Assembly: GCA_947488215.1 (NCBI GenBank)
Contig: CANLBD010000010.1
Span: 1-24,000, forward strand
Direction: 5' to 3'
Origin: Myxococcales bacterium
Lineage (GTDB): Bacteria > Myxococcota_A > Bradymonadia > UBA7976 > UBA1532
Length of the DNA: 24,000 nt
In this document: in pieces, positions 2,423 to 22,822 of the stretch
Position numbering within the stretch: position 1 is the first letter of the stretch
Layout: the number at the start of each line of letters is the position of its first letter
Translations under genes and position numbers: made by a program
The notes under the pieces: model-generated
Database searches by the model: none
What the model saw: the letters and a program-made list of their open reading frames with translations, nothing else
What the model was told of the DNA's origin: nothing

Positions 2423-2426
2423 GGTC

Positions 2427-2460
2427 AAAAAAAACGCCCCGGGGCGAAGCCACCGAGGCG
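2427..2460 (-). terminator. Rho-independent terminator of groESL
   Basis: The minus strand downstream of the groEL stop reads CGCCTCGG-tggcttcgcc-CCGGGGCG followed directly by T8. That is an 8-bp stem (7 Watson-Crick pairs plus 1 G-U) with a 10-nt loop. A second perfect hairpin, GACTCGCC-cc-GGCGAGTC, lies at 2467-2484 immediately after the stop codon. Confidence 0.72.
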
Positions 2461-2487
2461 CTCTCAGACTCGCCGGGGCGAGTCAGC

Positions 2488-4164
<1,677 letters not shown>

Positions 4165-4455
4165 TTACTGCTCGACGACCGCGAGGACTTCGTCCTCACG
4201 GAGGATCAAGTGCTCGATCCCGTCGATCTTGATCTCGGTGCCGCTGTACTTGCCGAAGAGGATGCGGTCGCCGGCCTTGACCTCGAGCGAGCGCACCGCG
4301 CCGTCCTCAAGGACCTTGCCGTTGCCGACGGCCACGATCTCGCCCTCGACCGGCTTCTCTTTGGCCGTGTCGGGGATGATGAGACCGCTCTTGGTGGTGG
4401 TCTCCGCCTCAAGGCGCTTCACGATGATGCGGTCGTACAGGGGACGAATCTTCAT
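4165..4455 (-). CDS. groES: Co-chaperonin GroES (Cpn10)
   Basis: 96 aa: [46 protein letters not shown]... It lies 33 nt upstream of groEL. An AAGGAG SD sequence lies 7 nt upstream of the ATG. Confidence 0.97.
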
Positions 4456-4518
4456 AGTCCAACTCCTTCGACGATTGCGTCTGCGGGTCGATGGGGCTTT
4501 GTGCCCCGAGCGCGACGG

Positions 4519-4546
4519 ACTCTAAGCACCCCCCGTGGGGTGTCAA
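4519..4546 (-). promoter_or_regulatory. Candidate sigma70-type groES promoter (TTGACA-N16-TAGAGT)
   Basis: On the minus strand, TTGACA is at 4546-4541, followed by a 16-nt spacer and TAGAGT at 4524-4519. This sits about 65 nt upstream of the groES ATG. The call rests on the sequence pattern only. Confidence 0.45.
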
Positions 4547-4558
4547 GCGGCGTCGTGT

Positions 4559-4586
4559 AAAAAATTCGAGGGACGTAATCCCTTGA
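4559..4586 (-). terminator. Candidate intrinsic terminator after lexA
   Basis: The minus strand reads TCAAGGGA-ttacg-TCCCTCGA, followed by A and then T6. The stem is 8 positions with one A/C mismatch. It lies 64 nt downstream of the lexA stop and upstream of the candidate groES promoter. Confidence 0.4.
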
Positions 4587-4649: not shown

Positions 4650-5282
4650 TCAGAACTTGCGGTAGATGCCGACGACCTTGCCGAGGATCATCGTCTCTCG
4701 GAAGTCGCGCTTGTGCACGTAGATGGGGGCCATCGCGGCGTTCGCCGGCTGGAACCGAATGCTGTCGCCCTCGGGATAGTAGTACTTGCAGGTCGCCTCT
4801 TCGCCGATCATCACGATGACGATCTCGCCACGCTCCGCGACCGGCGCCTTGCGGACGAAGACGTAGTCGCCGTCGAAGATCCCCGCCTCGATCATCGACT
4901 CGCCGACGATGCGCAGCGCGAACACCTCGCGGTGCGGCCCGATGAGCAGGCGGTCGATCTTGACGGTGTCCGCCGCCTCTGAGGTCGCCAGGATCGGCGC
5001 GCCAGCCGCGACTCGACCGAGCAGGCGGACCTCGACGAAGCCGTCGTCGTCGAAGTCGACATCGTCGTTCTGGCCGACTGGGCGGAGCGCGCGGCTCTTG
5101 AGGTCGTCCCGGGTCAGAACACCCTTGCGCTCCAGCGCTTTCAGGTGGTCATTGACGCCGTTGGTCGATCGGATGCCCATCTGCTTGCCGATCTCGCGGA
5201 TCGTCGGCGGATAGCCGCGCTCCTGAATGGACGCGTTGATGTACTCCAAGATCTCCTCCTGCCGGCGTGTTAGACCCTTCAC
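4650..5282 (-). CDS. lexA: LexA SOS repressor (S24 autopeptidase)
   Basis: 210 aa with a GTG start. It has an N-terminal winged-helix domain ([37 protein letters not shown]) and an Ala-Gly cleavage site in GRVAAGAPI. The catalytic Ser is in GESM and the catalytic Lys in EATCKYY. Confidence 0.93.
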
Positions 5283-5372: not shown

Positions 5373-6653
5373 ATGAACTCGAATGCCCCCCGAGTCCTCC
5401 TCGCGTCCGCATCGCCCCGGCGACGCGCGCTTCTGAGCGCGGCAGGTTTCGACGTGACCGTCCGTGCGGCCGACGTGAACGAAGACCAGCGCGCGGGGGA
5501 GAGCGCTGTCGACTACGCCGCGCGCGTCGCGCTCGACAAGGCGAAGGTCGGGCTCGCTGCGCGAGGCCCCGAGGAGCCTGCGTGGGCGCTCGGGAGCGAT
5601 ACGGTCGTCGCGCTTGCGGGCGAAGTGCTCGGCAAGCCGGCGACCGCAGCCGAGGCGGTCGACACGCTTGAGCGGCTCTCCGGCCAAACGCACGCCGTGC
5701 ACACCGCGATCGCGCTGTGTGGCCCACGGGGTGAGATGCATGTTGAGGTGCACACGGCACGCGTGCGCTTCCGTCCGCTTGAGCGCGACGAGGTGCGGGC
5801 TTACGTGGCCACGGGGGACGCGTTCGACAAAGCGGGCGCGTACGGGATTCAGGGGGGCGCCGGCGCTTTTGTCGAGGCGGTCGATGGCCCCTACGACGGT
5901 GTGGTCGGTCTGCCAGTCGCTCAGGTCCACGCGCTGGGAGTGCGCGCTGGAGCCTGGGCGACAGAGCCGGAGATGGTCACCCGCCTGCGCGCGCTCCGAG
6001 GACGCATCGCCGCGGCATGTCAGGCTGTCCAGCGCGTGCCCGCGTCCGTCACGCTCGTTGGGGTCTCGAAGCGGCACCCATCTGAGCGACTCCGCGAGGC
6101 GCTTGCGCTCGGCGTGATCGATCTCGGCGAGAACTACGTGCAGGAGTGGCGCGACAAGGCCACGGTCCTGGTCGAGGACGACGTGCGATGGCACTTCGTC
6201 GGGCGTCTTCAGAGCAACAAGGCCAAGGTGGTCGCTGGGCAGGTCTCGCTGGTGCACGCCGTCGACAGCTTGAGCACGGCGCAGGCGTTGGCACGCGCCG
6301 TTGAGCGCTCACCGGGCGCCGCACCTCAGCAGGTTCTGGTGCAGGTCAGCCTCGCGGGCGAGGCGCAGAAGGGCGGCGTGACCGCCGACGCGCTCCCGGA
6401 GTTGCTCGACACGCTCGCCACGCTGGGCTCGCTCCGGGTCGAAGGCCTGATGACGATGCCGCCCGAGGGGACGCTGTGCGGCGCTCGCGCAGTATTCCAG
6501 AGGCTTCGCGCGCTCCGAGACCACTGCGCTCGGCCTGAACGGCCGCTCACCCTGCTCTCGATGGGCATGTCGGACGACTTCGATCAGGCGATCGCCGAGG
6601 GCGCGACCCATATCCGCGTGGGCACCGCGCTGTTCGGAAGCCGCCCCGGCTGA
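5373..6653 (+). CDS. maf-yggS: Fusion protein: Maf nucleoside-triphosphate pyrophosphatase/septum-formation protein (N-terminal) plus YggS/PLPBP pyridoxal-phosphate homeostasis protein (C-terminal)
   Basis: A single uninterrupted 426-aa ORF. Residues 1 to about 190 are Maf-like (RVLLASASPRRRALL, GSDTVV, KAGAYGIQG, VVGLP). Residues about 201-426 are YggS-like (VTLVGVSKRHP with the PLP lysine, DLGENYVQE, WHFVGRLQSNK, GLMTMPP, LSMGMSDDF, ATHIRVGTALFG). An in-frame ATG sits at the junction (5973). Confidence 0.85.
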   Translation: MNSNAPRVLLASASPRRRALLSAAGFDVTVRAADVNEDQRAGESAVDYAARVALDKAKVGLAARGPEEPAWALGSDTVVALAGEVLGKPATAAEAVDTLERLSGQTHAVHTAIALCGPRGEMHVEVHTARVRFRPLERDEVRAYVATGDAFDKAGAYGIQGGAGAFVEAVDGPYDGVVGLPVAQVHALGVRAGAWATEPEMVTRLRALRGRIAAACQAVQRVPASVTLVGVSKRHPSERLREALALGVIDLGENYVQEWRDKATVLVEDDVRWHFVGRLQSNKAKVVAGQVSLVHAVDSLSTAQALARAVERSPGAAPQQVLVQVSLAGEAQKGGVTADALPELLDTLATLGSLRVEGLMTMPPEGTLCGARAVFQRLRALRDHCARPERPLTLLSMGMSDDFDQAIAEGATHIRVGTALFGSRPG

Positions 6654-9357: not shown

Positions 9358-12300
9358 ATGGCAGCCAAGATCGAGCCCACCGAAACTCAAGAGACCGAGG
9401 TCGAGCGTGGCTGGTTCTCGCCCGACCTCGCCCAGCCGGCCACCGCCGATGACGCGTCGTCGGCGCAGCTCCCGGGACAGGCGCTCCCAGGCATGTCGGA
9501 TGCGGAGTGGCAGCGCATCGTCGAGACGCTCCAAGTGCTTGAGCGAGAGTTGGGGCACGAGGTCGACCCGAAGCGCCGCGCTCAGCTCTGCTGGGAGGTC
9601 GGGCGCATCTACGAGGTCCGACTCGGCGACGATCGCCGCGCGGTGCAGGCCTATCAGCGCGCCCACCGGGCCGACCCCCATCACTTGCCAAGTCTTCGCG
9701 CGGGTCGCGCGATCTTCACGCGCGCGGCGCGCTGGCCGATGGTGCTGCGGCTGATCGACGCCGAGTTGAGGGCGGTCCCGAACGTGGACGCGCGTGCAGC
9801 CCTCTTGGTCGAGAAGGGCGAGATTTACGCCCGATTGAGTGAGCCGATGAATGCGGCGACCTGCTTCGAGGCTGCGCTCGAGCTCGACCCGACGTGCCGC
9901 GCGGCAGCTCGGGCTCTGGTGCGTTGGGCCTCTTCTCGCGGGGAGCCCGCGCTGCTCGCAGACGCTCTCGAGCGTCTTGCCGGCCTCTCGGCGACGGCCG
10001 TAATGCGCGCTCGCGCGCTGCTGGACGCGGCCTGCGTTCTCCAAGCGGTCGATCCTCGCTCGCCGCACGCGGTCGAGTTGTTGGAGCAGGCACACGCCCT
10101 CGACCCGAGAGACGCGGAGATCGCGGGTCGCCTCGCGCGGGCGTTCCAGCGCGCCGGTGACTGGGAACGCCTGATCGCCCTCACAAGCGAGCAGCCCGAG
10201 CGCCTGGAGCACGCTGCCGACCAAGCCGCGCGTCTCACGGAGACGGCCCGCTTACTCTCGGAGCGCGTCGGTGACTTGGGCCGCGCCGAGGCGTTCATCG
10301 AGCAAGCGCTCAGGACCGACCCGTTCTTCGCGCCCGCGCTCGAGCTGGCCGCATCGATCGCCGAGCGGCAGGGTCAGCCTGCAGCCGCGGTTGGGGCGTT
10401 GCAGCGGCTGACCCAGGTGACGGCAGACGTCGCGGTTCGCGTGCGCGTGCTGATGCAGATGGCGCAGCTCCAGCTCACGGCGCTCGGCGACGACACAGGG
10501 GCCATCGCCTCTCTAGGGCGCGTCTTGGGCGTCGCGCCCGCATGGTGGCCGGCGCGCGAATTGCTCGGCCGGGCGTTCACCCGTCGTGGCATGTGGGACG
10601 AGCTCGTGAAGCTCTACGAGCAAGAGGTCGAGCTCGCCGCGGACGACCCCCGGACCCGCGCCGACCGCCTGTATCGCCTCGGTGAGCTGCTTGAGGCGCG
10701 GCTCAAGAACGATGGCCGGGCAGAGACCTACTATCGGACCGCTGTGGGCATCGCGCCGGACGTGAGCCACTTCGTCGAAGCGTGGCTGCGGGTGGTGCGC
10801 CGTTTGGGTCAGCCCGAGGCGCTCGCTGCAGCATTGCGTCACACCGCCCAAGTCGCCGACACCCCCTCAGCGAAGGTGAGACGCCTCGAGGAGCTCGCGC
10901 ACGTCCTGGAGTCCGAGCTGGGGCAATTGGATGCATCCAAGTCTGCGTGGACAGAGGTCGCCGCGCTCGCGCCCTCTCACCGCGAGGCGCGACATCACCT
11001 GCAGCGGCTGTGTGCCGCGACCGCCGCGCATTCGGAGACCCTGCGCTGGCTGGACGCTGAGTTGCCTGACGCGACCGACCAAGCGCGTGTGCTCGCGCTC
11101 CTCGTGGCCTGCGCCGATGTCTGCTCGACGCACCTCGGCGATCGAGATGCAGCGCGCGCGTACTTGGAGCGCGCCCTTGAGCTCGACCCGAGCCATGTGC
11201 CGGCGCTGCGCGCGAGCGGGCGCCTCTATCACGCGATGGGCGCGTTCGCGCAGCTCGTCGAGATGACACGCCGCGAGGCCGAGGTCGCGAGCTCGCCCGA
11301 GGATGCGGCCGGTGTTTGGATGCGCGTCGGTGCCTTGTGCCGAGAAGAGCTCGCCGACTTCGACGCCGCTGCCAAAGCATGGGAGCGGGCCGCTGCGCTC
11401 GCTGCGGAGCCGCTGCCGGCGATTCGGGCGCTGCAGACACTTTACGCTGACATTGGCGATGTCGAGCACGAGGCCGAGATGCTCGCGGCCGAGGCTGAGC
11501 GGCTGACCGATCCGCGTGAGAAGGTCGCGCTGTGGTGTCGTTTGGGCGCGACGTGGCTCTATCGAGCCGACCACCCGGAGCACGCGATCGATGCGTGGCA
11601 GCAAGCGCTCTCGGTCGACCCGTGCGCCGAGGCGGCCTTGCAGCCCCTCCTGACGCTCTACGAAGAGCGCGGGCGCGCCGACGACATCGCCGCGATGTGG
11701 CGGCGCTGCGCCGAGGCCGCCGCAGACGACACGATCGCTGCGCGCGCTTGGGTGGAGTATGCGCGGGTCTGCGCCGACGCGCTCAGCCTGACAGTCGAGG
11801 CGATCGACGCGTGCGAGCGCGCTCTGGTCCTGGCGGACGGGCGCGAAGCGGTGGCACCGCTCATGCTTTTGGAGCGTCTCTATCGGCCACAAGAGGCGTC
11901 TGTCTCGCTCGCGCGCGTGCACTCCGCGCTCGCCGACCTGACCTACGACCCGATTGGGCAGCGCCTGCACCTGGAGGCCGCGGCAGAGCTCCTCGACGAG
12001 GCGGGCGAGCCGCCCGAGGCCATCTTGCAGGCTTGGCGTCGAGTCCTCGAGGTTGAGCCGGCGCACGCTCGCGCGCTCGCTCGCCTTGAGGAGCGCCTGC
12101 CGTCGGGTGAGGCGCGCCTCGAGGTGCACACACGGCGCATCGCAGCATCGAAAGATGCGCGTGAGGTGCTCGGCGCGCTCCTCGCTCGAGCGGAGCTGCT
12201 CCGCGGGCTCGGGCGACCGGACGAGGCCGTCGAGGACCTCGAAAGAGCCGTCGCTCTGGATACGGGCTCCGTCTCCGCGACGCGCGCCCTGCGTGAGGCG

Positions 12301-14394
12301 CTGACCGAAGCGGGTCGAGGGGATGAGGCGCTCCGCACGACCGAGCGGGAGGCGCGCGCGACGCGGGCACCCGAGGCGGCTGCGGCCCTTTTCCTGACGG
12401 TGGCGAAGGTTCGCGAGGTGCGTCTCTCAGACGCCGCGGGCGCCTTCGATGCGGCGAAGTTTGCCCTGGAGCGTGAGCCCACGAACGACGAAGCGGCCGA
12501 GGCGGTGCAGCGACTCGGGGACCGCCTTGGCCGCTTCGCAGAGGTCGCGCACGCGCTCGAGCAGCGTGCGGTCGCCGCGCCTACGCGGGCCGTCGATACG
12601 CTGCTCGAAGTGTCTCGCATCTACGCGCATCGACTGTCAGCGCCCGATTTGGCAGTGCGCGCACTGAACCAAGCGCTCGCAACGGGGGCGGGCGATGAAC
12701 GCGTGATTTTGCAGCGACTTGCCGACCTGTATGTCGAGTCCGAGGACTGGAACGAGGCGGTCGTCATCTATCAACGCCTTCGTGCGAGCGTGCAGGACGC
12801 CGACCTGCGGCGCGCGGTCGCCTTTCGGCTCGCCTCGATCTTCGAGGACAAGTTGGGTGACCTGTCCCGGGCGCGGGACACGCTCCAGATGCTTCAGTCA
12901 GAGCGACCGACGGACGCCGATGTTCAGATACGCCTCGCGCGCCTCGCGGAGTCGGCCGGCGACTTGGAGGCCGCGATCGAACACTCGCGCGCGGCTGTCG
13001 GACTCATGCCGGACGACGACCTGTCGACCGAACTGCGCGTCCGCATGGGCCGTCTGCTGGAGCAGCGTGGGCGAGTCGACGAGGCCGTCGAGGTCTATAA
13101 GCGGGTGCTCGCGTCTGCGCCTGACCGGGCAGACGTCGCGCTGCGGGCGGCGGAGCTCTTGGGACGACGCGGTGACACCAACGCGGTCTTGGCGACGCTT
13201 GGGGCGACCCTGGACACGATGCGCGCAGGCGCTTCGCCCGATGCGGCGCGGCTGCGTCGTCGGGCCGCCGAGCTCTTCGCGACGCACGATCCCGTGCGCG
13301 CCGTCCGCGAACTCGAGGCGCTTGTCGCGGACGATCCCGACGACTCGGACGCGCGCCAAGCCCTCGTGACCGCGTTTGTCGGACGTGATGCCTACGCTGA
13401 AGCGCTCCCGCACCTCAAATGGTTGGTCGCCCGGGACCCGTTCACGGCCGACCGCGTAGGGCATCTGCGTCGCGCGCTCTCGCGCGTCGGTGAGCATGAG
13501 CGCGCCGCATGGGTCGCGACGTGGCTTGAGGCGCTCGAAGGCGCGGCTGCGGACGACGTGGAGGCGTTCACACGCCTGCCCGAATACCCGCGCTACCCCG
13601 TGACGCTCCGCCTCGCAGCGGGGCGCGCTCAGGCGCTCTCCGAGTTGCCGCGCGATTCGTTCGAAGCGCTCGTTGTCACTTGGGTCAGGGCGCTGCCTCG
13701 TGTCTTCGCAGCCCCCCCAACGCTGCCCTCGCGCGAAGAGGGGTTACCGGCGGTGGAGCAGCTCGCGCGCCGATGTGGCGTCGCGCTCGGAGTCGACGAC
13801 GTCCGCGTCCTCGTCGACCGCACGTTGGGTGACGGCGTTCGGTACGCAGATGGGTCGCCCGCGCTGCTCGTCTTTGGCACAGCCGCGGTCTCAGGGCTCA
13901 CGCCCCAGGAGCAGGCCTTTCACATCGTTCGTGGCCTCTGGCTGGGGGCGAGGCAGCTCGCCGTCGTGACGAGCTGGCCTGCGTCTACGCTTGAAACGAT
14001 GCTCCGCACCGCGGCTGCGCTCCCGCGACCCGGCACACCCCCGCGCGTGCTCGAAGAGCCGCTCCGGACGCATGTTGCGCAGCTCGAATCCTTGCTCGAC
14101 AAGCGCGGGCGCGAGCTGGTCTCCGATAGCTTCGACGCCCTCGACCGCCACCTCGCAACGACGGACATCACGGGGGCGGTGGAGGGGTGGCTCTTCGCCG
14201 CGAGCCTTGAGGCCATGCGCCTCGCGGGACCTCGCGCGGCTTGGTCGGTCCTCGCGCGGACCATGTCGACTCAGGTCCGAGCGCTGCCCGTGGCCGACCG
14301 CTGGCGCGCGACGCCCGGAGTGCGGGCGCTCGCGCGCTGGATCGTGGAGACACCGACGTTTGGCGTCGAGGGCGCGCCGTCGGCGTTCCCATGA
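9358..14394 (+). CDS. Giant tetratricopeptide-repeat (TPR) protein, 1678 aa, with a non-TPR C-terminal region
   Basis: An uninterrupted ORF with an ATG start. TPR-like units recur dozens of times (e.g. AVQAYQRAHRADPHHLPSL, AATCFEAALELDPTCRAA, ARAYLERALELDPSHVPAL, AIDAWQQALSVDPCAEAA). The last ~300 aa (from about 13495) lose this periodicity. Confidence 0.85.
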   Translation: MAAKIEPTETQETEVERGWFSPDLAQPATADDASSAQLPGQALPGMSDAEWQRIVETLQVLERELGHEVDPKRRAQLCWEVGRIYEVRLGDDRRAVQAYQRAHRADPHHLPSLRAGRAIFTRAARWPMVLRLIDAELRAVPNVDARAALLVEKGEIYARLSEPMNAATCFEAALELDPTCRAAARALVRWASSRGEPALLADALERLAGLSATAVMRARALLDAACVLQAVDPRSPHAVELLEQAHALDPRDAEIAGRLARAFQRAGDWERLIALTSEQPERLEHAADQAARLTETARLLSERVGDLGRAEAFIEQALRTDPFFAPALELAASIAERQGQPAAAVGALQRLTQVTADVAVRVRVLMQMAQLQLTALGDDTGAIASLGRVLGVAPAWWPARELLGRAFTRRGMWDELVKLYEQEVELAADDPRTRADRLYRLGELLEARLKNDGRAETYYRTAVGIAPDVSHFVEAWLRVVRRLGQPEALAAALRHTAQVADTPSAKVRRLEELAHVLESELGQLDASKSAWTEVAALAPSHREARHHLQRLCAATAAHSETLRWLDAELPDATDQARVLALLVACADVCSTHLGDRDAARAYLERALELDPSHVPALRASGRLYHAMGAFAQLVEMTRREAEVASSPEDAAGVWMRVGALCREELADFDAAAKAWERAAALAAEPLPAIRALQTLYADIGDVEHEAEMLAAEAERLTDPREKVALWCRLGATWLYRADHPEHAIDAWQQALSVDPCAEAALQPLLTLYEERGRADDIAAMWRRCAEAAADDTIAARAWVEYARVCADALSLTVEAIDACERALVLADGREAVAPLMLLERLYRPQEASVSLARVHSALADLTYDPIGQRLHLEAAAELLDEAGEPPEAILQAWRRVLEVEPAHARALARLEERLPSGEARLEVHTRRIAASKDAREVLGALLARAELLRGLGRPDEAVEDLERAVALDTGSVSATRALREALTEAGRGDEALRTTEREARATRAPEAAAALFLTVAKVREVRLSDAAGAFDAAKFALEREPTNDEAAEAVQRLGDRLGRFAEVAHALEQRAVAAPTRAVDTLLEVSRIYAHRLSAPDLAVRALNQALATGAGDERVILQRLADLYVESEDWNEAVVIYQRLRASVQDADLRRAVAFRLASIFEDKLGDLSRARDTLQMLQSERPTDADVQIRLARLAESAGDLEAAIEHSRAAVGLMPDDDLSTELRVRMGRLLEQRGRVDEAVEVYKRVLASAPDRADVALRAAELLGRRGDTNAVLATLGATLDTMRAGASPDAARLRRRAAELFATHDPVRAVRELEALVADDPDDSDARQALVTAFVGRDAYAEALPHLKWLVARDPFTADRVGHLRRALSRVGEHERAAWVATWLEALEGAAADDVEAFTRLPEYPRYPVTLRLAAGRAQALSELPRDSFEALVVTWVRALPRVFAAPPTLPSREEGLPAVEQLARRCGVALGVDDVRVLVDRTLGDGVRYADGSPALLVFGTAAVSGLTPQEQAFHIVRGLWLGARQLAVVTSWPASTLETMLRTAAALPRPGTPPRVLEEPLRTHVAQLESLLDKRGRELVSDSFDALDRHLATTDITGAVEGWLFAASLEAMRLAGPRAAWSVLARTMSTQVRALPVADRWRATPGVRALARWIVETPTFGVEGAPSAFP

Positions 14395-14422
14395 GTGGGT
14401 TGGCGTGTGATAGGCTGTTGCG

Positions 14423-15304
14423 GTGAAGCTCGCTTACGCCTCGAATGGCTTTACCTTAGTCTCCTTGCCAGACGCCATCCACGCCTTGTCGCGCCTCGGC
14501 TACGCTGGGGTCGAGCTCTTGGCGGACGCCCCCCATTGGGCGCCGGAGGACGCGTCGAACGGTCGCGAAGACGACGTCCTCGCCGCGCTGCGAGAGACCG
14601 GGCTCGCGGTCAGCAACGTGAACGTGAACACCGCGGTCGGGCTCAGCGCGACGCCGCCCGCAGACGGCACCTTCGAGCCATCGCTGGGGCACTCGGACCC
14701 CGCCGTTCGCGCGCGTCGGATGGACTACACGCGCGCGGCGATGCGCTTCGCGGCGCGCGCTGGGGCTCGCTGCGTGAGCGTTGCGAGCGGGCGCGTCGAG
14801 CGTGACGTTCCCCCCGAGGTTGGGCGGGAGCACCTCGCGGAGAGCTTGCGGGCGCTGTGCGTCGACGCTGACGCGCTGGGCCTCCGTGTCGGCATCGAGG
14901 CGGAGCCTGCGCTCCTCGTCGAGCGCACAGACGAGCTGTTGTGGCTGTTCGACCGCGTCCGTCACCCCGCGCTGGGTGCGAACCTAGACCTCGGACATGT
15001 CCTCTGCGCGGGCGAAGACCCCGTTCATGCGATCGAGCGCCTTCAGGGGCGCATTTGGAACGTGCACGTCGAGGATATTCGCGACCGCAAGCACTTTCAC
15101 CGCGTCCCGGGAGAGGGGGACGTCGATTTTGTGTCGCTTTTTCGGGCGCTGCGCTCGACGGGTTACACGGGCTTTGTCACCGTGGAGCTCTACACGTGCG
15201 CGGACCGCGCCGAGGCCGCCGCGACGCGATCGCTTGAGGTCTTGGCGGCGGCGATGCGCGAGGCGCGCGGCGAGGCCGCGGTGGATGGGAGTCAGGTCAC
15301 TTGA
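14423..15304 (+). CDS. Xylose-isomerase-like TIM-barrel protein (sugar-phosphate isomerase/epimerase, IolE/IolI/EboE-like fold)
   Basis: 293 aa with a GTG start 28 nt after the TPR stop. It shows the family pattern GYAGVELL, RVGIEAEP, LGANLDLGHV, WNVHVEDI...PGEGDVDF, YTGFVTVELY. These are the metal-ligand-type E/E/D-H/H-D/E positions. Confidence 0.8.
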   Translation: MKLAYASNGFTLVSLPDAIHALSRLGYAGVELLADAPHWAPEDASNGREDDVLAALRETGLAVSNVNVNTAVGLSATPPADGTFEPSLGHSDPAVRARRMDYTRAAMRFAARAGARCVSVASGRVERDVPPEVGREHLAESLRALCVDADALGLRVGIEAEPALLVERTDELLWLFDRVRHPALGANLDLGHVLCAGEDPVHAIERLQGRIWNVHVEDIRDRKHFHRVPGEGDVDFVSLFRALRSTGYTGFVTVELYTCADRAEAAATRSLEVLAAAMREARGEAAVDGSQVT

Positions 15305-16473
15305 AGCGCGTAGGGGTCTGGATCGTAGGCGCGAGCGGGAGCATCAGCGCGGTGACGCTCGCGGGGCACGCCGCGATGGTGCGCGGCCTTGCGCGGCCTG
15401 ATGGCCTTGTCACTGAGCGCACAGACTTCGCCGAGGCGGGCTTTGCGCCGCTGTCGAGCCTGGTCTTTGGCGGGCACGAGGTGAGGCGGCGCTCATTGGC
15501 CTCAGCCGCCGCTGAGATCTTGCCCGCCTGCGGGGTTCATGGCCTCGCAGAGCGCCTGACGGACGCTCTTGAGGCCATTGATCGCGAGATTCGACCTGGC
15601 ATTGCCCGCGGCGCGGGCCCGAGCATCGAGGCCGACGGTGCCCGGGTCGTCACGACGGACTTCGAGGCCATCGAGGCTGTGCGTCACGACCTGCGCGACT
15701 TCGCGACGCGCAACGACCTCTCGCACGTTGTCGTCGTCAACCTCGCGAGCACCGAGGCTTCCCGCGTGCCGCACGCGGCTTGGCAGCGGCTCGAAGACCT
15801 TGACGCCGCGCTCGCGCGAGGCGGAGACATCTTGCCGGCGAGTGCGCTGTACGCCTATGCGACCCTCGCCGAGGGCTTCGCGTACGTGAACTTTACGCCG
15901 AGCGTCGGGTCGCGGCTGCCCGCGCTCTGTGAACTTGCCCTGCACACCGGGGCGGTGCACACGGGGTCGGACGGCAAGACAGGCGAGACGCTGGTCAAGT
16001 CGGTGCTCGGTGAGCTCTTCGCTCGGCGCAACCTGCGCGTGCTCTCGTGGTTCGGGCAGAACATCCTCGGGAACGAGGACGGGCGCGTGCTGAACGACCC
16101 GCTCCACAAGGCCTCGAAGATTCGGAGCAAGGACCAGCTCCTCCCGAAGCTTCTGGGGTACGCGCCGGAGACGCACGTCGGCATCGACTACGTCCCGAGC
16201 TTGGGCGAGTGGAAGATCGCGTGGGACCACATTCACTTCGAGGGCTTCCTCGGCGGTCGCATGTCGATGCAGTTTACGTGGAACGGGTGTGACTCGCTGC
16301 TCGCCGCGCCGCTCGTGCTCGACCTCGTTCGCTTGGTGGAGCTCGCGCACCGGCGCGGTGAGCGCGGCGTCTTCTCGGCGGCGGCGTCGTTCTTCAAGGA
16401 CCCCATGGGCACGGACGAGCAGCGGCTGGTGGCCCAGGATGAGGCGCTGCTTGCATGGATCGCGCGCCGCTGA
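15301..16473 (+). CDS. ino1: myo-Inositol-1-phosphate synthase family protein (inositol-3-phosphate synthase)
   Basis: 390 aa. It shows VGVWIVGASGSIS (NAD-binding N-terminus), VVVNLASTE, YVNFTPS, GSDGKTGETLVKSVL, SWFGQNILGNEDG and CDSLLAAPLVLDLVRL. These match the conserved MIPS blocks (LWTANTE, GDDxKSGQTKxKS, SYNHLGNNDG, CEDSLLAAPLILDL). The TTG start overlaps the upstream stop (TTGA). Confidence 0.9.
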   Translation: MKRVGVWIVGASGSISAVTLAGHAAMVRGLARPDGLVTERTDFAEAGFAPLSSLVFGGHEVRRRSLASAAAEILPACGVHGLAERLTDALEAIDREIRPGIARGAGPSIEADGARVVTTDFEAIEAVRHDLRDFATRNDLSHVVVVNLASTEASRVPHAAWQRLEDLDAALARGGDILPASALYAYATLAEGFAYVNFTPSVGSRLPALCELALHTGAVHTGSDGKTGETLVKSVLGELFARRNLRVLSWFGQNILGNEDGRVLNDPLHKASKIRSKDQLLPKLLGYAPETHVGIDYVPSLGEWKIAWDHIHFEGFLGGRMSMQFTWNGCDSLLAAPLVLDLVRLVELAHRRGERGVFSAAASFFKDPMGTDEQRLVAQDEALLAWIARR

Positions 16474-17363
16474 TGGCGGGGGCGCGCGCCTGGCTCGAGC
16501 TCATTCGGCTGCCTGCCGTCTTCACGGCCCCCGCGGACGTCCTCGCTGGCGCCGCGCTGACCGGCGCGCTCGCGTCGACGGCGGACACGACGCTCACGGC
16601 CGCACGTCTCGCGGGCGCGGTGCTCGCGAGCGTCGCAGTCTATGCAGCCGGAATGGCGGCGAACGACTACTGCGACGCGCGCATCGACGCGGCAGAGCGG
16701 CCCAACCGACCGATCCCCTCCGGGCGTGTTACCCAGGCGCAAGTGCTGCGCTTCGTGCTGACCCTGCAGCTCCTCGCCGTCCTTATCGCGGGCGTTGTTT
16801 CCGTCGCCGCAGGCGCAGCCGCCCTCGCCACGGTCGGATTGACCTGGCTATATAACGGCCTATTGAAAGACTCGGCGGTCGGGCCGCTCTCCATGGGGGC
16901 GTGCCGATACGGCAACGCGCTGGTCGGCGCGTGCGCGGTCGCGTGGCCCGTGCCCCCGCAGGCTTGGGGAGCGCCGCTCGCGACGCTGCTGTACGTCGCG
17001 GCGATCACCGGCGTATCGCGCTTCGAGGTCGCGGGCGGACGCGGCGGCGCCTATCGGACAGCGGTCGCGGTCTTGGTCGCTCTCAGCGGCATCGCCGGGT
17101 TGGTCGGCGCGCTCCACAACGCCCCCCTCTGGTCGACGCTCGTGGGCCTCGCGCCGACCCTCTGGCTGCTGCGGGCAGTGCGGCCTGCTTGGCCCGAGGC
17201 GAGCGGCGGTGCGGTGCGAGGCATCGTGATGGCGGGCATCTTCGGCATCGCGCTCCTGAACGCCGCGCTCTGCGCTCAGGCGGGTCATCCGCTCATTGCC
17301 GCGCTCGTTGTCGCCCTCGCGGTCAGCGGTCGCTTCGTGGGGCGTCGGTTCTACTCGACCTGA
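16455..17363 (+). CDS. UbiA-superfamily integral-membrane prenyltransferase
   Basis: 302 aa, hydrophobic throughout with about 8-9 predicted helices by eye. The first Asp-rich motif is intact (ANDYCDARIDAAERPNRPIPSGRV), and YNGLLKD follows. ATG 16455 overlaps the MIPS gene by 19 nt and has GAGG 10 nt upstream. The alternative in-frame ATG 16473 overlaps the TGA by 1 nt. Confidence 0.85.
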   Translation: MDRAPLMAGARAWLELIRLPAVFTAPADVLAGAALTGALASTADTTLTAARLAGAVLASVAVYAAGMAANDYCDARIDAAERPNRPIPSGRVTQAQVLRFVLTLQLLAVLIAGVVSVAAGAAALATVGLTWLYNGLLKDSAVGPLSMGACRYGNALVGACAVAWPVPPQAWGAPLATLLYVAAITGVSRFEVAGGRGGAYRTAVAVLVALSGIAGLVGALHNAPLWSTLVGLAPTLWLLRAVRPAWPEASGGAVRGIVMAGIFGIALLNAALCAQAGHPLIAALVVALAVSGRFVGRRFYST

Positions 17364-17378: not shown

Positions 17379-18299
17379 TCAGGGCTTCCGAGACGCCACG
17401 GGCTCGATGACCAGCGTGACCGGCGTGCCGACCGCGGGGATGTCTCTCGTGTTGACCTCAAAGCCCAGGCCTTCGCCGCGGTAGGGGTTGCCGACGTCCT
17501 CGGTCGCCCCGAAGACGCAGGTGTCGTCCGGGATCAACCCGATGACGCTCCGCGCGGAGTCGGCGCTGTAGCTCGCCTCCCAGAAGATGCTGCCCATGAA
17601 CGACCACTCCGCGGCCTTGCCGGGCCGCTTCGTCTTCCGATTCCAGAGCAGGCTCTCGACGGGTACGCGCTCGACCTTGCCCGGCTTGGTCGATGGTCGC
17701 TCGACGAACATGCGGACGCGCGCACCCGCTTTGGAGACGCGGCGGCCGTAAGGCTTGACGTTGACGTATTCGTTCGGCTCGAGGTCGAGCAGGAGCATCG
17801 CCATGTGCAGGTGGCTGGGCACTGCCTGCATCTCAAGCACGGACTCGTGGAGTTTGCCGTTTGCGGTCACCGCGATGTACTCGAGGATGCCCTTCGACAT
17901 GTTGATGCGGGCCGGGACCTCGATGCGTCGCGCGGCGGTGTTGACGCGGATGGCGCCCACCTCGATACGCGCCTCATCGAGCTTGCGAATCGGGATCGCC
18001 CCGGGTCGCGTGTCCGGCGTGCCCGAGCGCGCGGCGTCCCGCATGCGGAGAATATCGGCCGCGCCGGTCGGCGCGCCGTGAATGCGGGGTTGAGGAGGGA
18101 CAGGGGGAGGCAGCTCAATGCGCGGCCGCTTTGCGCGCCGGCCGGGGCCCGTGCCGACATCCGCTTGCAGGCCAGCGTCCGGGATGACGACGCGCGGTCG
18201 ACTCCCCTCCGACCTGTCATCGCTCGGCGCGCAGCCCAGCGCGAGGCCCAGGAAGGCCGAGGCAAGTGTCGCGATACGTTGAGCGCCACCTCGCGTCAT
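17379..18299 (-). CDS. Putative lipoprotein of unknown function
   Basis: I place the start at ATG 18299-18297, giving MTRGGAQRIATLASAFLGLALGC, a signal peptide plus lipobox-like LALGC. This ATG overlaps the stop of the upstream methyltransferase (ATGA). The ORF-track start at 18659 would put 120 Arg-rich residues inside the methyltransferase gene. The conserved-looking core GILEYIAVTANGKLHESVLE reminds me of proteins labelled YdjY-domain, but that is an unverified recollection. Confidence 0.6.
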   Translation of the reverse strand: MTRGGAQRIATLASAFLGLALGCAPSDDRSEGSRPRVVIPDAGLQADVGTGPGRRAKRPRIELPPPVPPQPRIHGAPTGAADILRMRDAARSGTPDTRPGAIPIRKLDEARIEVGAIRVNTAARRIEVPARINMSKGILEYIAVTANGKLHESVLEMQAVPSHLHMAMLLLDLEPNEYVNVKPYGRRVSKAGARVRMFVERPSTKPGKVERVPVESLLWNRKTKRPGKAAEWSFMGSIFWEASYSADSARSVIGLIPDDTCVFGATEDVGNPYRGEGLGFEVNTRDIPAVGTPVTLVIEPVASRKP

Positions 18300-19309
18300 G
18301 CGCGCCTCTGCGCCCGAACAAGGGTGTAGTTGATCGGCGCTGGGAGTCGGTGCACCTCCGTGACATCGAAGCCGACCTCGTCGAGCCAAGCGCGCTGCTC
18401 CGCGACAGAGTGGCAGCGTCCGTCGTGGCTCAGCACGCGCATGTTGAGCTGGAACATGGCGCCAAAGAGCGGGCCCGCGCGGTCGTCGTCGAGCATGACG
18501 TCGCTCAACCAGAGGACCGCGCCTGGCTCGGCCGCCTGCGCGACCTGAGAGAAGATGCGGCGGACACCCTCCGGCTGCTCGCGGTGCAGCACGCCGGAGA
18601 TGAGGAACGCATCGTATCGACCGGGCAGTGCGTCGCGCGTGTAGTCGTAGGCCGTGCACGTCACGCTCGGTGCGGCGCCCATCGACGCGACGATCTCTCG
18701 GGCGATCGCGACGACCCCCGGGAGGTCGAGCACCTCCGCGTGGAGGCCAGGCGTCTTTTGGGTCAGGAGCGCGGAGTACGTCCCCGGCCCCCCGCCGACA
18801 TCGGCGAGCTTCGTTTTGCCGGTGAAATCGACCACAGCCGCGACGGCTCGCCCGACGCCGAGCGCGCGGTGGTGCATGCCGTAGACGAAGTTGCGGGTGC
18901 GCGTGTCATCGGCGCCCAGGTATTGGTTCGGGGACTCTGCGACTTTGCCGGAGCGCACGACGCTGTCCAGGTTCGCCCACAGCGAGAAGACATCGCCGTT
19001 ATAGAGCAACGCAGGCCCTAGGAAGCCGGGGCGGCCTTCGACGAGGAACGCCTCTGCGAGCGCGCTGTTCGTGAACCGCTCACCCTCGCCCTTGCTGCAC
19101 AGCCCCACGTTCGACATCGCGGCGAGGAGCGCGTCCGTGGCGATGGGGTCGGTACCGGCGCGCGTCGCGACGTCGGCCGCAGTGGCCGGCCCGTCGGCAA
19201 GGAGCGTTGGCAGGCGCAGTCGAACCGCAGCGACGAGCGTTGCGCTGCCCCAAAAGGCGGTCGCGAGTTCGATGAGTGCGGCGGGGTTCGGGGCGGCGGG
19301 CGTGGTCAT
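18296..19309 (-). CDS. Class I SAM-dependent O-methyltransferase (family-2 OMT type with N-terminal dimerisation/winged-helix domain)
   Basis: I place the start at ATG 19309-19307 (MTTPAAPNPAALIELATAFWGS...), with GAGG upstream. SAM motif I is LADVGGGPGTY, followed by VLDLP and an acidic loop. Length (337 aa) and layout fit plant/bacterial family-2 OMTs such as CrtF-like enzymes. The ORF-track extension to 19771 is low-complexity and unsupported. Confidence 0.85.
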   Translation of the reverse strand: MTTPAAPNPAALIELATAFWGSATLVAAVRLRLPTLLADGPATAADVATRAGTDPIATDALLAAMSNVGLCSKGEGERFTNSALAEAFLVEGRPGFLGPALLYNGDVFSLWANLDSVVRSGKVAESPNQYLGADDTRTRNFVYGMHHRALGVGRAVAAVVDFTGKTKLADVGGGPGTYSALLTQKTPGLHAEVLDLPGVVAIAREIVASMGAAPSVTCTAYDYTRDALPGRYDAFLISGVLHREQPEGVRRIFSQVAQAAEPGAVLWLSDVMLDDDRAGPLFGAMFQLNMRVLSHDGRCHSVAEQRAWLDEVGFDVTEVHRLPAPINYTLVRAQRRA

Positions 19310-20002: not shown

Positions 20003-22822
20003 ATGCATCTGCGCGCGATCGAGCAGGAGAAGTCGAAGGCGGATGACGCGTTCTCTCGCGGCGCGCTCACGGACGCTGCCGCGTCTCTCGAGGCCATTGA
20101 GGCCGCCTACCAGCGCCTCGGTTTTCACGAGGGCCTCGCTACGCTGCGATACAATCGCCTGCTCATGGCCGTGGAAGCCGACGAGCGGGCTGAGTTGCCG
20201 CGTGTGGGCCGGGCGCTCGCGGAGACCCTTCGTTGTCTCGAGCCGCCTGCGACGCCCCTGATCCTGCAGGTCGCAGCGGGGCTCAAGCGCCTGCTCGCTG
20301 GCTCAGTGCGCGGGCTCGACGCGGCGCTCGAAGCCGAGCTCCTTGAGCTCGCGGCGTGGCTCGGCGGCGATGCTCTTGAGGCCGAGGCGACCACATCGAG
20401 CCGAGAATGGCCGACTCTGCCGACGCGTGAGGCGTCGACGCTCGGGGCGGAAGACGCCGCGCGTGTCCTCATTCAGAGCGCAGGCGCTGGCCTGCTCGCT
20501 GGCCTCGGCGCGACCGAGGCCCCGCCCGCGCTCGCGCTGACCGCGCTGGAATCGGCGCGCGTCGCCGCGCTCGCCGGAAACGTCGAGCAGCAGTACATCG
20601 AGCTCGTGCGCGCGTTCGAGTTGACCGCGCCCCGCGAGCCGCGCACGGCGCTCGACATTCAGGCGTCACTCAACGTCCTGGAGAGCGGGACGCTTCCGCC
20701 TTCTCTTGACTATCGCTCAACCTTGCCCCGAGAGCGTCGGCTCCGCGTCGCCGCGGGCCTGCATGCGCGGATCGCGCGGGTGGTCGCACGGCAAGCGGGT
20801 TCGGAGAGCGTCGCTGCGGTCCAGTGGCGCCACGTCGAGTCTGTCGCCACCGCAGCCCTCGGGCACGCCGCTGCCCGACGTGACCGGGGCGCGCTGCAGA
20901 CGGACGACGGGGAGCACGAGGCGCAGCTCACGCTCATGGTCGCCGAGGCGCGTCGAGCGTTGGGGCACGTGAGTGAAGGGCTCGCCTACCTTGAGCCCTT
21001 CATCGCGCGCGCTCGACGCGGCGCGTTCGGCCGACGGGAAACCTCGGTGCGCGTCCTCTCCGGTTATGCGGAGTTCCAAGAGCGCCTCGGGCGCCTCGAT
21101 GAAGCCGCTGAAGCTTGGCGGGAGGCGGCTGAGTTGGCCTTGCCAGGCGCGTGCGGCTCGCGCCGACCCATGGTGCTCGCACAGATTGTCGGCGACGCGA
21201 TGGACGAGGGCTTGGTGGATTGCGTCGTGCTCGGCGCGATCGCGCTCGCCGGTGTGGCGCGCACACGCGACGTGGACGAGCCTGAGCATGCGCGCCTCGT
21301 CCTCGGCGCCGCGCACACATTGATGTCCTTCGCGCGTCGCGACCTTGATCCAGCAGACTTTGGGCACGCGATGCTCTGGATCGAGCTGAGCCTCGCTCGC
21401 TTCGGAGACGCTGTGGCGGCTGGACGCGCTCGAGAGCTCGCGCGCGCCCGTCAAGACCCAGAGGCGCTCGCTCTGGGCGGGCTCCTTCAAGCGCTCACGA
21501 CCCCGACGGCCGATACACCGCAGGGGCGACGTGCGGCGCGCGCGGCCTTCGTTCAGGTCGCCCTGGAGTCGGTTCGGGCGACGGCGGGTGCAGTCCGTCG
21601 GGCCACCGAACTCTGCGCGGCGCACGCATGTCGGGCCATCGCCGTCGAGACGGTCGCCGACTGGTCTCGCGTCGAGGTTCACCTGCGCCGCTATGCCGAG
21701 GCGGCTCGTCCCGGCGCCTTCCTGGACGGCGCCGGACCTTGGGACCTGTGTCTACCGACCACGCTGCCGACGACGCGGGACGCGCTCCTCGACGCCCTCG
21801 TCGACGCGGGGCGCGTTGCCGCGGTTCACCGCAGCCTCACGACGTCGCGCCTCGGTGAGCTTGCACCACAGACGCCACCTGCGCTCGCCGCAGATGAGGC
21901 GCACCTGGAGTTCCATCCGCGGCTCGCTGAGGTGTGGGTCTTCGTTCGCGTAGCCGACCTGCCGCTCACGCTGGTCCGGATCGGTGAGTCGGTCGCAGGC
22001 GTGGATGCGCGCGTCGATGAGCTCCTCGAGGCGCTCACCCTGCGCGGCGAGGACGCGCGACGCGAAGTTCAGCAACGCGCGCAGGCTGTATTTCGCGCGT
22101 TGGTCGCGCCGTGCATCGGTGCCCTGAGCGGCGTCACGCGGCTCCTCGTGACGGCAACGGGCTGCCTCGCGCGTGTGCCCTTCGGTGTGCTCCTCGGCGA
22201 CCAGTTTCTGTGCGAGCGCTTCGACATCGCGCGCACCTTCGCGGCACCCGCGGTGGCCGCACCGCGCGAGGCGGTGGACCGTGACCCCCGTCGTCTCGTC
22301 GTGCTCGGCGACGCAGTCACCTCGCGTGACCTGGGCCTGTGCGAGCTTGAGCGGGACGGGGTGTGGTCCGCGGTCCATGTCGTCTCGGATGCAGAGGACC
22401 TGCACGACGAGGCGCTCGACGCTCGATTGGCCGGCGCGCGGTGCGTCCACTTGGTCGGTGCCGTCGCTGCGCGCTGCGTTGAGCTGCGCGAAGGCCACCC
22501 CGCCTCGCTTCAGGCGCTTGGCGCTCGCCTTCGCCGCGCGGGCGTGGCCGTCGTTGTCCTCGACGGACCCGTGGATGGTCCAGAGGCGGACGCCGCGCTC
22601 TCAGCGCTCATCGAGGGGGGCTGCGACGCAGTCATCGTGCGACGTTGGGCGGGCGACGAGGACGGCACGTTCCTGCGGGAGCTCGTCCGGGCTTGCGCGC
22701 GGGCCGAGGCAGCCGCTGACGTGACGCGTGCGCTCGCCGAGACGCGCCGCGCAGCCGTGAGAGCGCGGCTCCCGGCGCGAGCGTGGATGGCCTACGAGGT
22801 CTTCGAGCGCGAGCGGGCCTGA
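20003..22822 (+). CDS. TPR-like helical repeat protein with a C-terminal CHAT-like domain that apparently lacks the catalytic His/Cys
   Basis: 939 aa. The C-terminal ~300 aa follow the CHAT layout: LLVTATGCLARVPFGVLL, VHLVGAV where CHAT has HxxxHG, VVVLDGPVDG where CHAT has vvLSaCxtg, ALIEGGCDAVIVRRWAGDEDGTFL, and a final ALAETRRAAV..RAWMAYEVF. The assignment is by eye and needs an HMM search. Confidence 0.55.
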   Translation: MHLRAIEQEKSKADDAFSRGALTDAAASLEAIEAAYQRLGFHEGLATLRYNRLLMAVEADERAELPRVGRALAETLRCLEPPATPLILQVAAGLKRLLAGSVRGLDAALEAELLELAAWLGGDALEAEATTSSREWPTLPTREASTLGAEDAARVLIQSAGAGLLAGLGATEAPPALALTALESARVAALAGNVEQQYIELVRAFELTAPREPRTALDIQASLNVLESGTLPPSLDYRSTLPRERRLRVAAGLHARIARVVARQAGSESVAAVQWRHVESVATAALGHAAARRDRGALQTDDGEHEAQLTLMVAEARRALGHVSEGLAYLEPFIARARRGAFGRRETSVRVLSGYAEFQERLGRLDEAAEAWREAAELALPGACGSRRPMVLAQIVGDAMDEGLVDCVVLGAIALAGVARTRDVDEPEHARLVLGAAHTLMSFARRDLDPADFGHAMLWIELSLARFGDAVAAGRARELARARQDPEALALGGLLQALTTPTADTPQGRRAARAAFVQVALESVRATAGAVRRATELCAAHACRAIAVETVADWSRVEVHLRRYAEAARPGAFLDGAGPWDLCLPTTLPTTRDALLDALVDAGRVAAVHRSLTTSRLGELAPQTPPALAADEAHLEFHPRLAEVWVFVRVADLPLTLVRIGESVAGVDARVDELLEALTLRGEDARREVQQRAQAVFRALVAPCIGALSGVTRLLVTATGCLARVPFGVLLGDQFLCERFDIARTFAAPAVAAPREAVDRDPRRLVVLGDAVTSRDLGLCELERDGVWSAVHVVSDAEDLHDEALDARLAGARCVHLVGAVAARCVELREGHPASLQALGARLRRAGVAVVVLDGPVDGPEADAALSALIEGGCDAVIVRRWAGDEDGTFLRELVRACARAEAAADVTRALAETRRAAVRARLPARAWMAYEVFERERA

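Follow-up and report, generated by a model that had tools for sequence, protein, structure and literature searches.

A three-gene TIM barrel, inositol-3-phosphate synthase and UbiA cassette in a Myxococcales contig and its relation to the ebo pathway

What would a cyclitol-forming enzyme make together with a membrane prenyltransferase when only one further enzyme is encoded between the same gene boundaries? This question is raised by a 24,000-nt stretch of a Myxococcales bacterium contig (CANLBD010000010.1, positions 1 to 24,000; hereafter, the window), in which overlapping genes at 14423-17363 encode a xylose-isomerase-like TIM barrel (TIM), an inositol-3-phosphate synthase (MIPS), and a UbiA-family membrane prenyltransferase. 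The reading that we prefer, and hold with middling confidence, is that the ebo (thallusin-type) pathway has in this cassette an inositol-type relative reduced to few genes, and that the product of the cassette is probably different, being a simpler prenylated, possibly O-methylated cyclitol or cyclitol-derived ring compound. In support of this reading, MIPS and TIM are repeatedly associated with EboC-like prenyltransferases wherever the dehydroquinate synthase-like (DHQS-like) EboD is absent.

Gene structure and protein families of the trio

The TIM (14423-15304, +; 293 aa, PF01261) starts with GTG, the MIPS (15301-16473, +; 390 aa, PF07994 and PF01658), which is of the archaeal/bacterial ~390-aa type, starts with TTG, and the EboC/SCO3242-like UbiA (16455-17363, +; 302 aa, PF01040) starts with ATG. 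Reading of the junctions in the sequence showed that the TGA stop of the TIM overlaps the TTG start of the MIPS as TTGA (15301-15304). Two starts were possible for the UbiA, namely ATG at 16455, with a 19-nt overlap with the MIPS, and ATG at 16473 (296 aa), which has 1 base in common with the MIPS stop (TGATG). UbiA homologues align from residue ~10, indicating that the second ATG is a plausible start. The open reading frame (ORF) list and the junction reading confirmed the original prediction, made from the DNA letters, that three same-strand ORFs with overlapping stops and starts occupy 14423-17363, and its statement that each ORF has clear family motifs was borne out by Pfam matches for TIM barrel, MIPS, and UbiA far beyond chance. 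A sigma-70 promoter scan returned 0 promoters, and a terminator scan gave results at chance level.

In the Pfam profile search, the MIPS matched both domains of its family (PF07994, 6.8e-41; PF01658, 1.6e-32), and it aligned end to end with the solved MIPS of Archaeoglobus fulgidus (1u1i) at 251 bits. In this alignment, positions D225, N255, D261, K274, K278, K306, D332, and K367, which we take to be the catalytic positions of the A. fulgidus enzyme, were all conserved in the window MIPS. With both Pfam domains and this catalytic Lys/Asp set, the protein is a predicted member of the MIPS family, and the full-length alignment together with the conserved residues suggests that it is an ordinary archaeal/bacterial-type MIPS. 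It scored low on the actinomycete "mycothiol INO1" model, which appears to be no sign of divergence. A divergent non-MIPS cyclase, such as a five-membered cyclitol-phosphate synthase, was rejected because the protein scored 251 bits against a genuine MIPS versus 54 bits against 6k96 and its catalytic residues are intact. In agreement with the original prediction, no CDP-alcohol phosphotransferase or phosphatidylinositol phosphate synthase partner for the MIPS was found in the 24-kb window by Pfam search. A further MIPS lies in an unrelated cluster (L009, 10001-21197; loci are referred to by L numbers), where it adjoins a transposase in a contig from a metagenome-assembled genome (MAG) assembly; an identical protein is labelled Solidesulfovibrio sp. 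DCME. The surroundings of that gene, with an aminotransferase, methyltransferases, a glycosyltransferase, five radical-SAM genes, and no UbiA, look like a cyclitol natural-product cluster.

The TIM-barrel family takes in IolE, sugar epimerases, and the aromatising dehydroshikimate dehydratase. The window TIM matched PF01261 at 1.2e-40, and the NCBIfam search returned weak partial matches to IolE, epimerases, and QuiC. On the EboE model NF035939, it scored 17 bits (cut-off 250), whereas a control actinomycete EboE scored 415.7 bits. In the TIM-barrel tree, three non-EboE orthogroups were recovered, with the window TIM placed in orthogroup X together with one haloarchaeal and one Bacillus TIM; it had 45% identity to the downstream TIM of Halococcus and 32% to the actinomycete TIM1. 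The E-x-E-P and D-x-x-H motifs were kept across the 57 aligned TIMs. An assignment to EboE was therefore rejected on the model score and the separate orthogroup, and the parallel with EboE that had been drawn in the original prediction does not hold. An assignment to IolE or IolI was unsupported, with only partial 54-bit matches versus a cut-off of 290 and a best PDB match of 46 bits.

The UbiA matched PF01040 at 2.3e-18 (66.8 bits versus a gathering score of 34.2), its NDxxDxxxD motif (N70 D71 D74 D78) is invariant in the UbiA alignment, and several hydrophobic 19-mers are present, as expected for a polytopic membrane protein of the UbiA superfamily. Its top two NCBIfam matches were EboC (NF035940, 182.6 bits; cut-off 250) and the SCO3242 family (NF045897, 157.7 bits; cut-off 260). 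Controls on the EboC model scored 367.5 bits (Maribacter) and 326.4 bits (Bacillus), and controls on the SCO3242 model scored 337-366 bits (337 for the Kribbella SCO3242-type protein). Because these two models scored best and both scores fall below the curated cut-offs, the window UbiA is placed in the EboC/SCO3242 superfamily but in neither curated family. The next matches were the unnamed prenyltransferase PRK12884 (70 bits) and the digeranylgeranylglyceryl phosphate (DGGGP) synthase PRK12882 (65 bits). Membership of a classical clade (UbiA, MenA/MenA-like, CyoE, ChlG, or DPPR synthase) was rejected, since all these models scored 16-52 bits, far under their cut-offs; a place inside a characterised menaquinone-, ubiquinone-, or heme O-type clade, together with a lack of co-conservation, was an outcome that the original prediction had named as speaking against it.

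A word-indexed search retrieved ~66 close UbiA relatives with 43-95% identity, followed by a sharp fall in score; nearly all came from MAGs that bear the label Myxococcales, Myxococcota, or Bradymonadia. When 1.84 billion cluster representatives were searched exhaustively with HMMER, only 30 matches fell below 1e-30, ~8-10 of them at 189 bits or more. A member of the clade is carried by only 4 of 185,579 species-representative genomes. In neighbor-joining trees with 300 bootstrap replicates, the window UbiA clade was recovered in 298/300 replicates, the actinomycete, haloarchaeal, and planctomycete clades in 300/300, 295/300, and 273/300, respectively, and a wider Myxococcota-type super-clade in 240-247/300. 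The deep branching among EboC-like proteins was poorly supported (the myxococcal, planctomycete, and Bacillus sequences were grouped in 87/300 replicates), and therefore no sister group is claimed for the window clade. By these comparisons, the window UbiA is best described as belonging to a separate, small Myxococcota-type clade.

Recurrence of the trio in other phyla and in related loci

The 80 best genome loci with an EboC-like UbiA were annotated by seed profiles, and the phylum counts given here derive from them. MIPS adjoins UbiA in 50/57 actinomycete and 5/6 planctomycete loci and lies within 10 kb of it in 10/12 haloarchaeal loci. The actinomycete loci, in the order MIPS-UbiA-TIM-EboA-TatD-EboE-phosphodiesterase (PDE), contain TatD in 53/57 and PDE in 57/57 cases. 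In the Kribbella cluster, the EboA domain (143 bits), EboE (416), and SCO3242 (337) all scored above their cut-offs, which marks the actinomycete loci as genuine ebo clusters, with MIPS and one extra TIM instead of EboD. Seven of the 57 SCO3242-type actinomycete loci (L035, L036, L040, L043, L049, L074, and L078) have no MIPS within 10 kb, and some of them also lack TatD or the second TIM, so that reduced forms exist in Actinomycetota too.

The order in Halobacteria is PDE and MIPS divergent from TatD-TIM-UbiA-TIM, and that in Planctomycetota is MIPS-TIM-UbiA-TIM, with TatD some kilobases away (~9 kb) in 3/6 loci and no PDE within 10 kb. In Bacillus cereus plasmids, the order is TIM-TatD-TIM-EboC-PDE-MIPS, the UbiA being named eboC by the PGAP annotation. 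One such plasmid cluster (L090, NZ_CP045607.2, 5320-11246) is flanked by a pyrroloquinoline quinone-dependent sugar dehydrogenase and a glutamate decarboxylase. On a Haladaptatus plasmid (L091), two Gfo/Idh/MocA oxidoreductases and a third TIM barrel (1593-3695 and 14445-15446) lie near the ebo-like cluster; the oxidoreductases may be inositol dehydrogenases, and the window cassette has no enzyme for such a step.

Clusters of MIPS, TIM barrel, and EboC-like UbiA are thus common in Actinomycetota, Halobacteria, Planctomycetota, and Bacillus plasmids, and outside Planctomycetota they also carry EboB- and EboF-type genes. Counterparts of all three window proteins occur in these clusters (UbiA identity 33-47%), and in the window, too, a MIPS and a non-EboE TIM lie beside the UbiA. 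The ebo-like logic of the original prediction is therefore upheld, as the UbiA best matches EboC/SCO3242 and ebo clusters with MIPS and an extra TIM in place of EboD exist. Its statement that MIPS is not paired with a UbiA enzyme was wrong in view of these loci and of a 2026 preprint describing the actinomycete form, and for the same reason its claim of novelty was overstated.

That preprint, of May 2026 (10.64898/2026.05.21.724671), reports that two compounds, saccharoquinoline and the algal morphogen thallusin, owe their production to ebo genes, that eboB, C, E, and F are each essential for thallusin in Stieleria, and that EboC proteins from three phyla farnesylate 6,7,8-trihydroxyquinaldate. 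It also describes an actinomycete arrangement without eboD, flanked by ino1 (MIPS) and by ino2 and ino3 (isomerases/dehydratases), proposed as a detour by which the product of EboD is reached. The four core ebo genes were counted in more than 4,000 genomes, with Myxococcota among the phyla listed, and the ebo genes of Planctomycetota were scattered (10.64898/2026.05.21.724671). Although a February 2026 review still called the final ebo product unknown, these assignments make the earlier statement that the product is chemically undefined outdated. A cluster was defined in the preprint by at least 4 of 9 target genes (10.64898/2026.05.21.724671), and a three-gene cassette such as that of the window would therefore not have been counted. 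In our literature search, no paper describing a three-gene TIM-MIPS-UbiA cassette was found.

No TatD, PDE, EboA, EboE, or DHQS-like gene was detected anywhere in the 24-kb window by Pfam search or by seed phmmer of all six-frame ORFs, which sustains the earlier claim that EboA, EboB, and EboF homologues are lacking. DHQ_synthase had no match on any major window ORF, so that no EboD was found and the cyclase role is held by the MIPS. The ~10 related loci were compared over ±10 kb of each contig, and in none of them was a TatD, PDE, EboA, or EboE found within 10 kb by seed phmmer on six-frame ORFs and in Pfam tables. Their usual neighbors of the UbiA, described further below, are genes for a YdjY-domain protein and an O-methyltransferase (OMT). 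Locus L013 retains a TPR gene followed by TIM-MIPS-UbiA and has a MoxR-vWA system in place of YdjY and OMT; this region (10911-16478, −) of a Myxococcales MAG encodes a MoxR-vWA-type ternary system with bpMoxR, ivWA, and fvmX7 domains. Locus L012 retains MIPS-UbiA-YdjY-OMT without TIM and TPR. In three sister lineages of the super-clade (L092, L093, and L095, around 10001 in each; UbiA 38-40% identical), some of which are marine (Tara), a TPR gene is followed after 0-8 nt by UbiA and then by YdjY, with OMT in L092 and L093; L095 ends before that point.

A further case is L097, a contig of 58% GC in which TIM, MIPS, and UbiA occur in the same order and again with the TTGA overlap, in an unrelated context without YdjY or OMT. 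Its UbiA lies inside the super-clade, with members of the window clade as nearest neighbors. In this part of L097 (10168-13024), the trio is followed by a gene for a 504-aa Myxococcales-type Cys-rich repeat protein. Two genes downstream of the trio, there is a glycerol-1-phosphate dehydrogenase-like gene (167 bits; cut-off 413), which is suggestive beside a UbiA related to DGGGP synthases and was seen in this one locus only. The presence of the trio both in the conserved block and in the unrelated context of L097 suggests that it behaves as a portable module. The original prediction had asked for a check of synteny; the same ordered trio was indeed found in the block loci and in L097, but the sister lineages and L012 lack TIM and/or MIPS. 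From these gene arrangements, the link of TIM and MIPS to UbiA appears strong but not obligate, and UbiA-YdjY-OMT appears to form a second, partly independent association.

Proposed function and its alternatives

In the pathway that we propose, the MIPS would cyclise glucose-6-phosphate to inositol-3-phosphate, as its full-length likeness to a solved MIPS and its intact catalytic residues suggest. The TIM barrel may then isomerise or dehydrate the cyclitol so made, a step proposed only from its family and from its recurrent partnership with MIPS where EboD is missing. The EboC-like UbiA would, by its family, prenylate this cyclitol-derived compound at the membrane; characterised EboC enzymes use farnesyl diphosphate. 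The OMT may methylate the UbiA product; it is a candidate tailoring enzyme, and OMT and YdjY are a likely, still putative, tailoring and handling pair. Thallusin production depends on EboB, E, and F, none of which, nor EboA, is encoded nearby, and the window contains no genes with which a quinoline could be made. The product is therefore probably not thallusin; a prenylated inositol or inosose derivative is plausible. More tentatively, TIM-MIPS-UbiA could be a self-sufficient portable pathway with no need of EboA, B, E, and F, yielding a non-thallusin product such as a prenylated O-methylated inositol/inosose ether or an inositol-derived prenyl-hydroquinone-like lipid. On that possible account, this product would be a trait conserved on the chromosomes of an uncultured lineage labelled Myxococcota/Bradymonadia, and the OMT and the YdjY lipoprotein would be partners dedicated to it.

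Several observations weigh against the relation to ebo that we prefer. Characterised EboC enzymes take quinolines and not simple phenols or catechols, as reported for the flavobacterial enzyme (PMC9235831), and the window has nothing that could make a quinoline. The TIM barrel has no close characterised relative in the NCBIfam and PDB searches, and no oxidoreductase or phosphatase to process inositol-3-phosphate is present with the cassette. In local alignments, the window MIPS was 59% identical to the L009 MIPS from its unrelated cluster and 36-56%, mostly ~45%, identical to the MIPS of other ebo-like clusters, suggesting an ordinary MIPS that could serve other needs. Finally, L012 is missing the TIM, and neither TIM nor MIPS was found within 10 kb in L092, L093, and L095.

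In an account that we find doubtful, TIM and MIPS are functionally separate from UbiA: the MIPS would be a general source of inositol phosphate, as might be needed for inositol lipids, that chances to lie within a long operon of housekeeping genes, and UbiA, OMT, and YdjY would act on an unrelated acceptor. This account is consistent with the TPR-UbiA-YdjY(-OMT) arrangement of the sister lineages, with the standard character of the MIPS, and with the position of the block in a conserved proC-divIVA neighborhood. However, MIPS and UbiA are found side by side, independently, in five phyla; in L097, all three genes lie together, with overlapping codons, in an unrelated context; the start/stop overlaps in the window indicate coupling; and the window contains no CDP-alcohol phosphotransferase.

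It also seems unlikely that the trio is a fragment of a complete but dispersed ebo pathway, with EboB, E, F, and possibly EboA encoded elsewhere in the genome and thallusin or saccharoquinoline as the product, even though scattered ebo genes are reported from Planctomycetota, Myxococcota are among the phyla with the core genes, and EboC enzymes of three phyla all farnesylate trihydroxyquinaldate (10.64898/2026.05.21.724671). The planctomycete MIPS-TIM-UbiA-TIM loci, with TatD only ~9 kb away or none and no PDE within 10 kb, point the same way. This explanation is opposed by the ~10 related loci, none of which has TatD, PDE, EboA, or EboE within 10 kb, by the UbiA scores under both EboC-type cut-offs and its separate clade, and by the constant neighbors OMT and YdjY, which were never beside the ebo clusters of other phyla in the annotated loci. 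We give very little credence to a UbiA that acts like archaeal DGGGP synthases, O-prenylating inositol-3-phosphate or a TIM-modified form of it to give an ether-linked polyprenyl-inositol-phosphate membrane lipid and not an aromatic meroterpenoid. PRK12884 and the DGGGP synthase model PRK12882 did rank next after EboC and SCO3242, neither a phosphatase nor an aromatising enzyme set is present, and L097 has its glycerol-1-phosphate dehydrogenase-like gene; yet aromatic quinolines are the compounds prenylated by all characterised enzymes of the EboC/SCO3242 group, the DGGGP synthase scores are far under cut-offs, and the dehydrogenase-like gene occurs in one locus only.

Neighboring genes and comparison with known ebo systems

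With regard to the gene location, a gene for a 1678-aa TPR protein (9358-14394, +; from the ORF list) ends 28 nt before the TIM start and is probably co-transcribed with the trio. An orthologous TPR protein of 1500-1670 aa is encoded directly upstream in L001, L003, L005, L011, L013, L092, L093, and L095 and is absent from L012 and L097. Convergent on the trio is the YdjY-domain gene (17379-18299, −; NF040466, 113 bits; start refined to ATG 18299), whose product begins with a signal peptide and may have a lipobox (LALGC); no relative was found in the PDB search, and no functional literature on YdjY was found. YdjY adjoins UbiA in L001, L003, L005, L011, L012, L092, L093, and L095, but not in L013 and L097. 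The class-I S-adenosylmethionine-dependent OMT (18296-19309, −; 337 aa; start refined to ATG 19309) has a Methyltransf_2 domain (PF00891, 2.4e-23) and a dimerisation domain (PF08100, 7.7e-13). Its stop overlaps the YdjY start as ATGA, suggesting that OMT and YdjY form their own, translationally coupled operon. No other gene of the block is as well conserved as the OMT (60-71% identity across lineages; 60% to the sister lineage, versus 37-40% for P5CR and UbiA). The best PDB match of the OMT was the DsyB/MTHB methyltransferase (111.6 bits), followed by CalO6 and MmcR; DsyB, the MTHB S-methyltransferase of dimethylsulfoniopropionate synthesis, thus ranks ahead of aromatic natural-product OMTs.

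The upstream part of the conserved block comprises a Maf/YggS fusion (present in L001, L003, and the window itself), P5CR, DivIVA (annotated in some loci), an MA-peptidase, and the ~1660-aa TPR protein, and the downstream part runs from TIM, MIPS, and UbiA through the convergent YdjY and OMT to genes for a small TPR protein, a protein of ~1000 aa, and a Ser/Thr kinase. In the window, the fused Maf and YggS (Ala_racemase_N) protein, kept in related MAGs, is encoded at 5373-6653 (+), and a LexA repressor is encoded upstream of the cassette at 4650-5282 (−). Four long ORFs (432, 223, 784, and 939 aa) at 456-4560 (+) and 20003-22822 (+) had no Pfam match; the 939-aa protein is kept downstream of OMT in related loci with 27-38% identity.

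The cassette is a cut-down version of a widely distributed type of gene cluster, for which annotation models (EboC and SCO3242 of NCBIfam) and a partial characterisation already exist, and the pairing has precedents. Its distinctive features are the presence of only three genes, the usual OMT and YdjY neighbors, the recurrence of the trio in an unrelated context, and the sister lineages that keep UbiA, YdjY, and OMT without TIM and MIPS. The interest of the locus lies in this minimal natural form of a MIPS-type system, found in an uncultured lineage with OMT and YdjY as new partners. Reduced to the prenyltransferase and the MIPS/TIM supply module, the cassette shows which parts travel together and that MIPS and TIM are a recurrent EboD replacement across five phyla, and it is useful for dissecting ebo; its expression might uncover the cyclitol-derived compound on which EboC-like enzymes act directly, or else prenylated cyclitols of a new class. 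Published cluster definitions miss reduced forms of this kind.

Compared with the Actinomycetota-type ebo cluster (SCO3242 family with ino1/ino2/ino3, as in Saccharomonospora sp. CNQ-490, a saccharoquinoline/thallusin producer), the window likewise has MIPS directly beside an EboC-like UbiA, a non-EboE TIM, and no DHQS-like EboD. The actinomycete cluster has an EboA domain, TatD (EboB), EboE, and phosphodiesterase (EboF), whereas the window lacks all four, and the two differ in gene order (MIPS-UbiA-TIM versus TIM-MIPS-UbiA) and in TIM orthogroup (Z versus X). With the canonical eboABCDEF of Maribacter and other Flavobacteria, cyanobacteria, and eustigmatophyte plastids, the window has a common logic of a cyclitol-forming enzyme, a TIM barrel, and an EboC-type UbiA. 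However, the canonical cluster uses the DHQS-like EboD and has EboA, B, E, and F (L094), whereas the window uses MIPS and lacks these genes, and the Maribacter EboC scored 367 bits on the EboC model versus 183 for the window UbiA. The haloarchaeal and Bacillus cereus plasmid clusters (PDE, MIPS, TatD, TIM, UbiA, and TIM) resemble the window in MIPS, EboC-like UbiA, and TIM orthogroup X, but they carry a second TIM (orthogroup Y), TatD, and phosphodiesterase and, unlike the window, no OMT/YdjY pair. The Planctomycetota loci (for example, that of Aquisphaera insulae) are nearest to the window in simplicity, with adjacent MIPS, TIM, and UbiA, no PDE within 10 kb, and a UbiA under the EboC cut-off (197 bits); they differ from it in having two TIMs (Y and Z, not X), often a TatD within 10 kb, and neither OMT nor YdjY.

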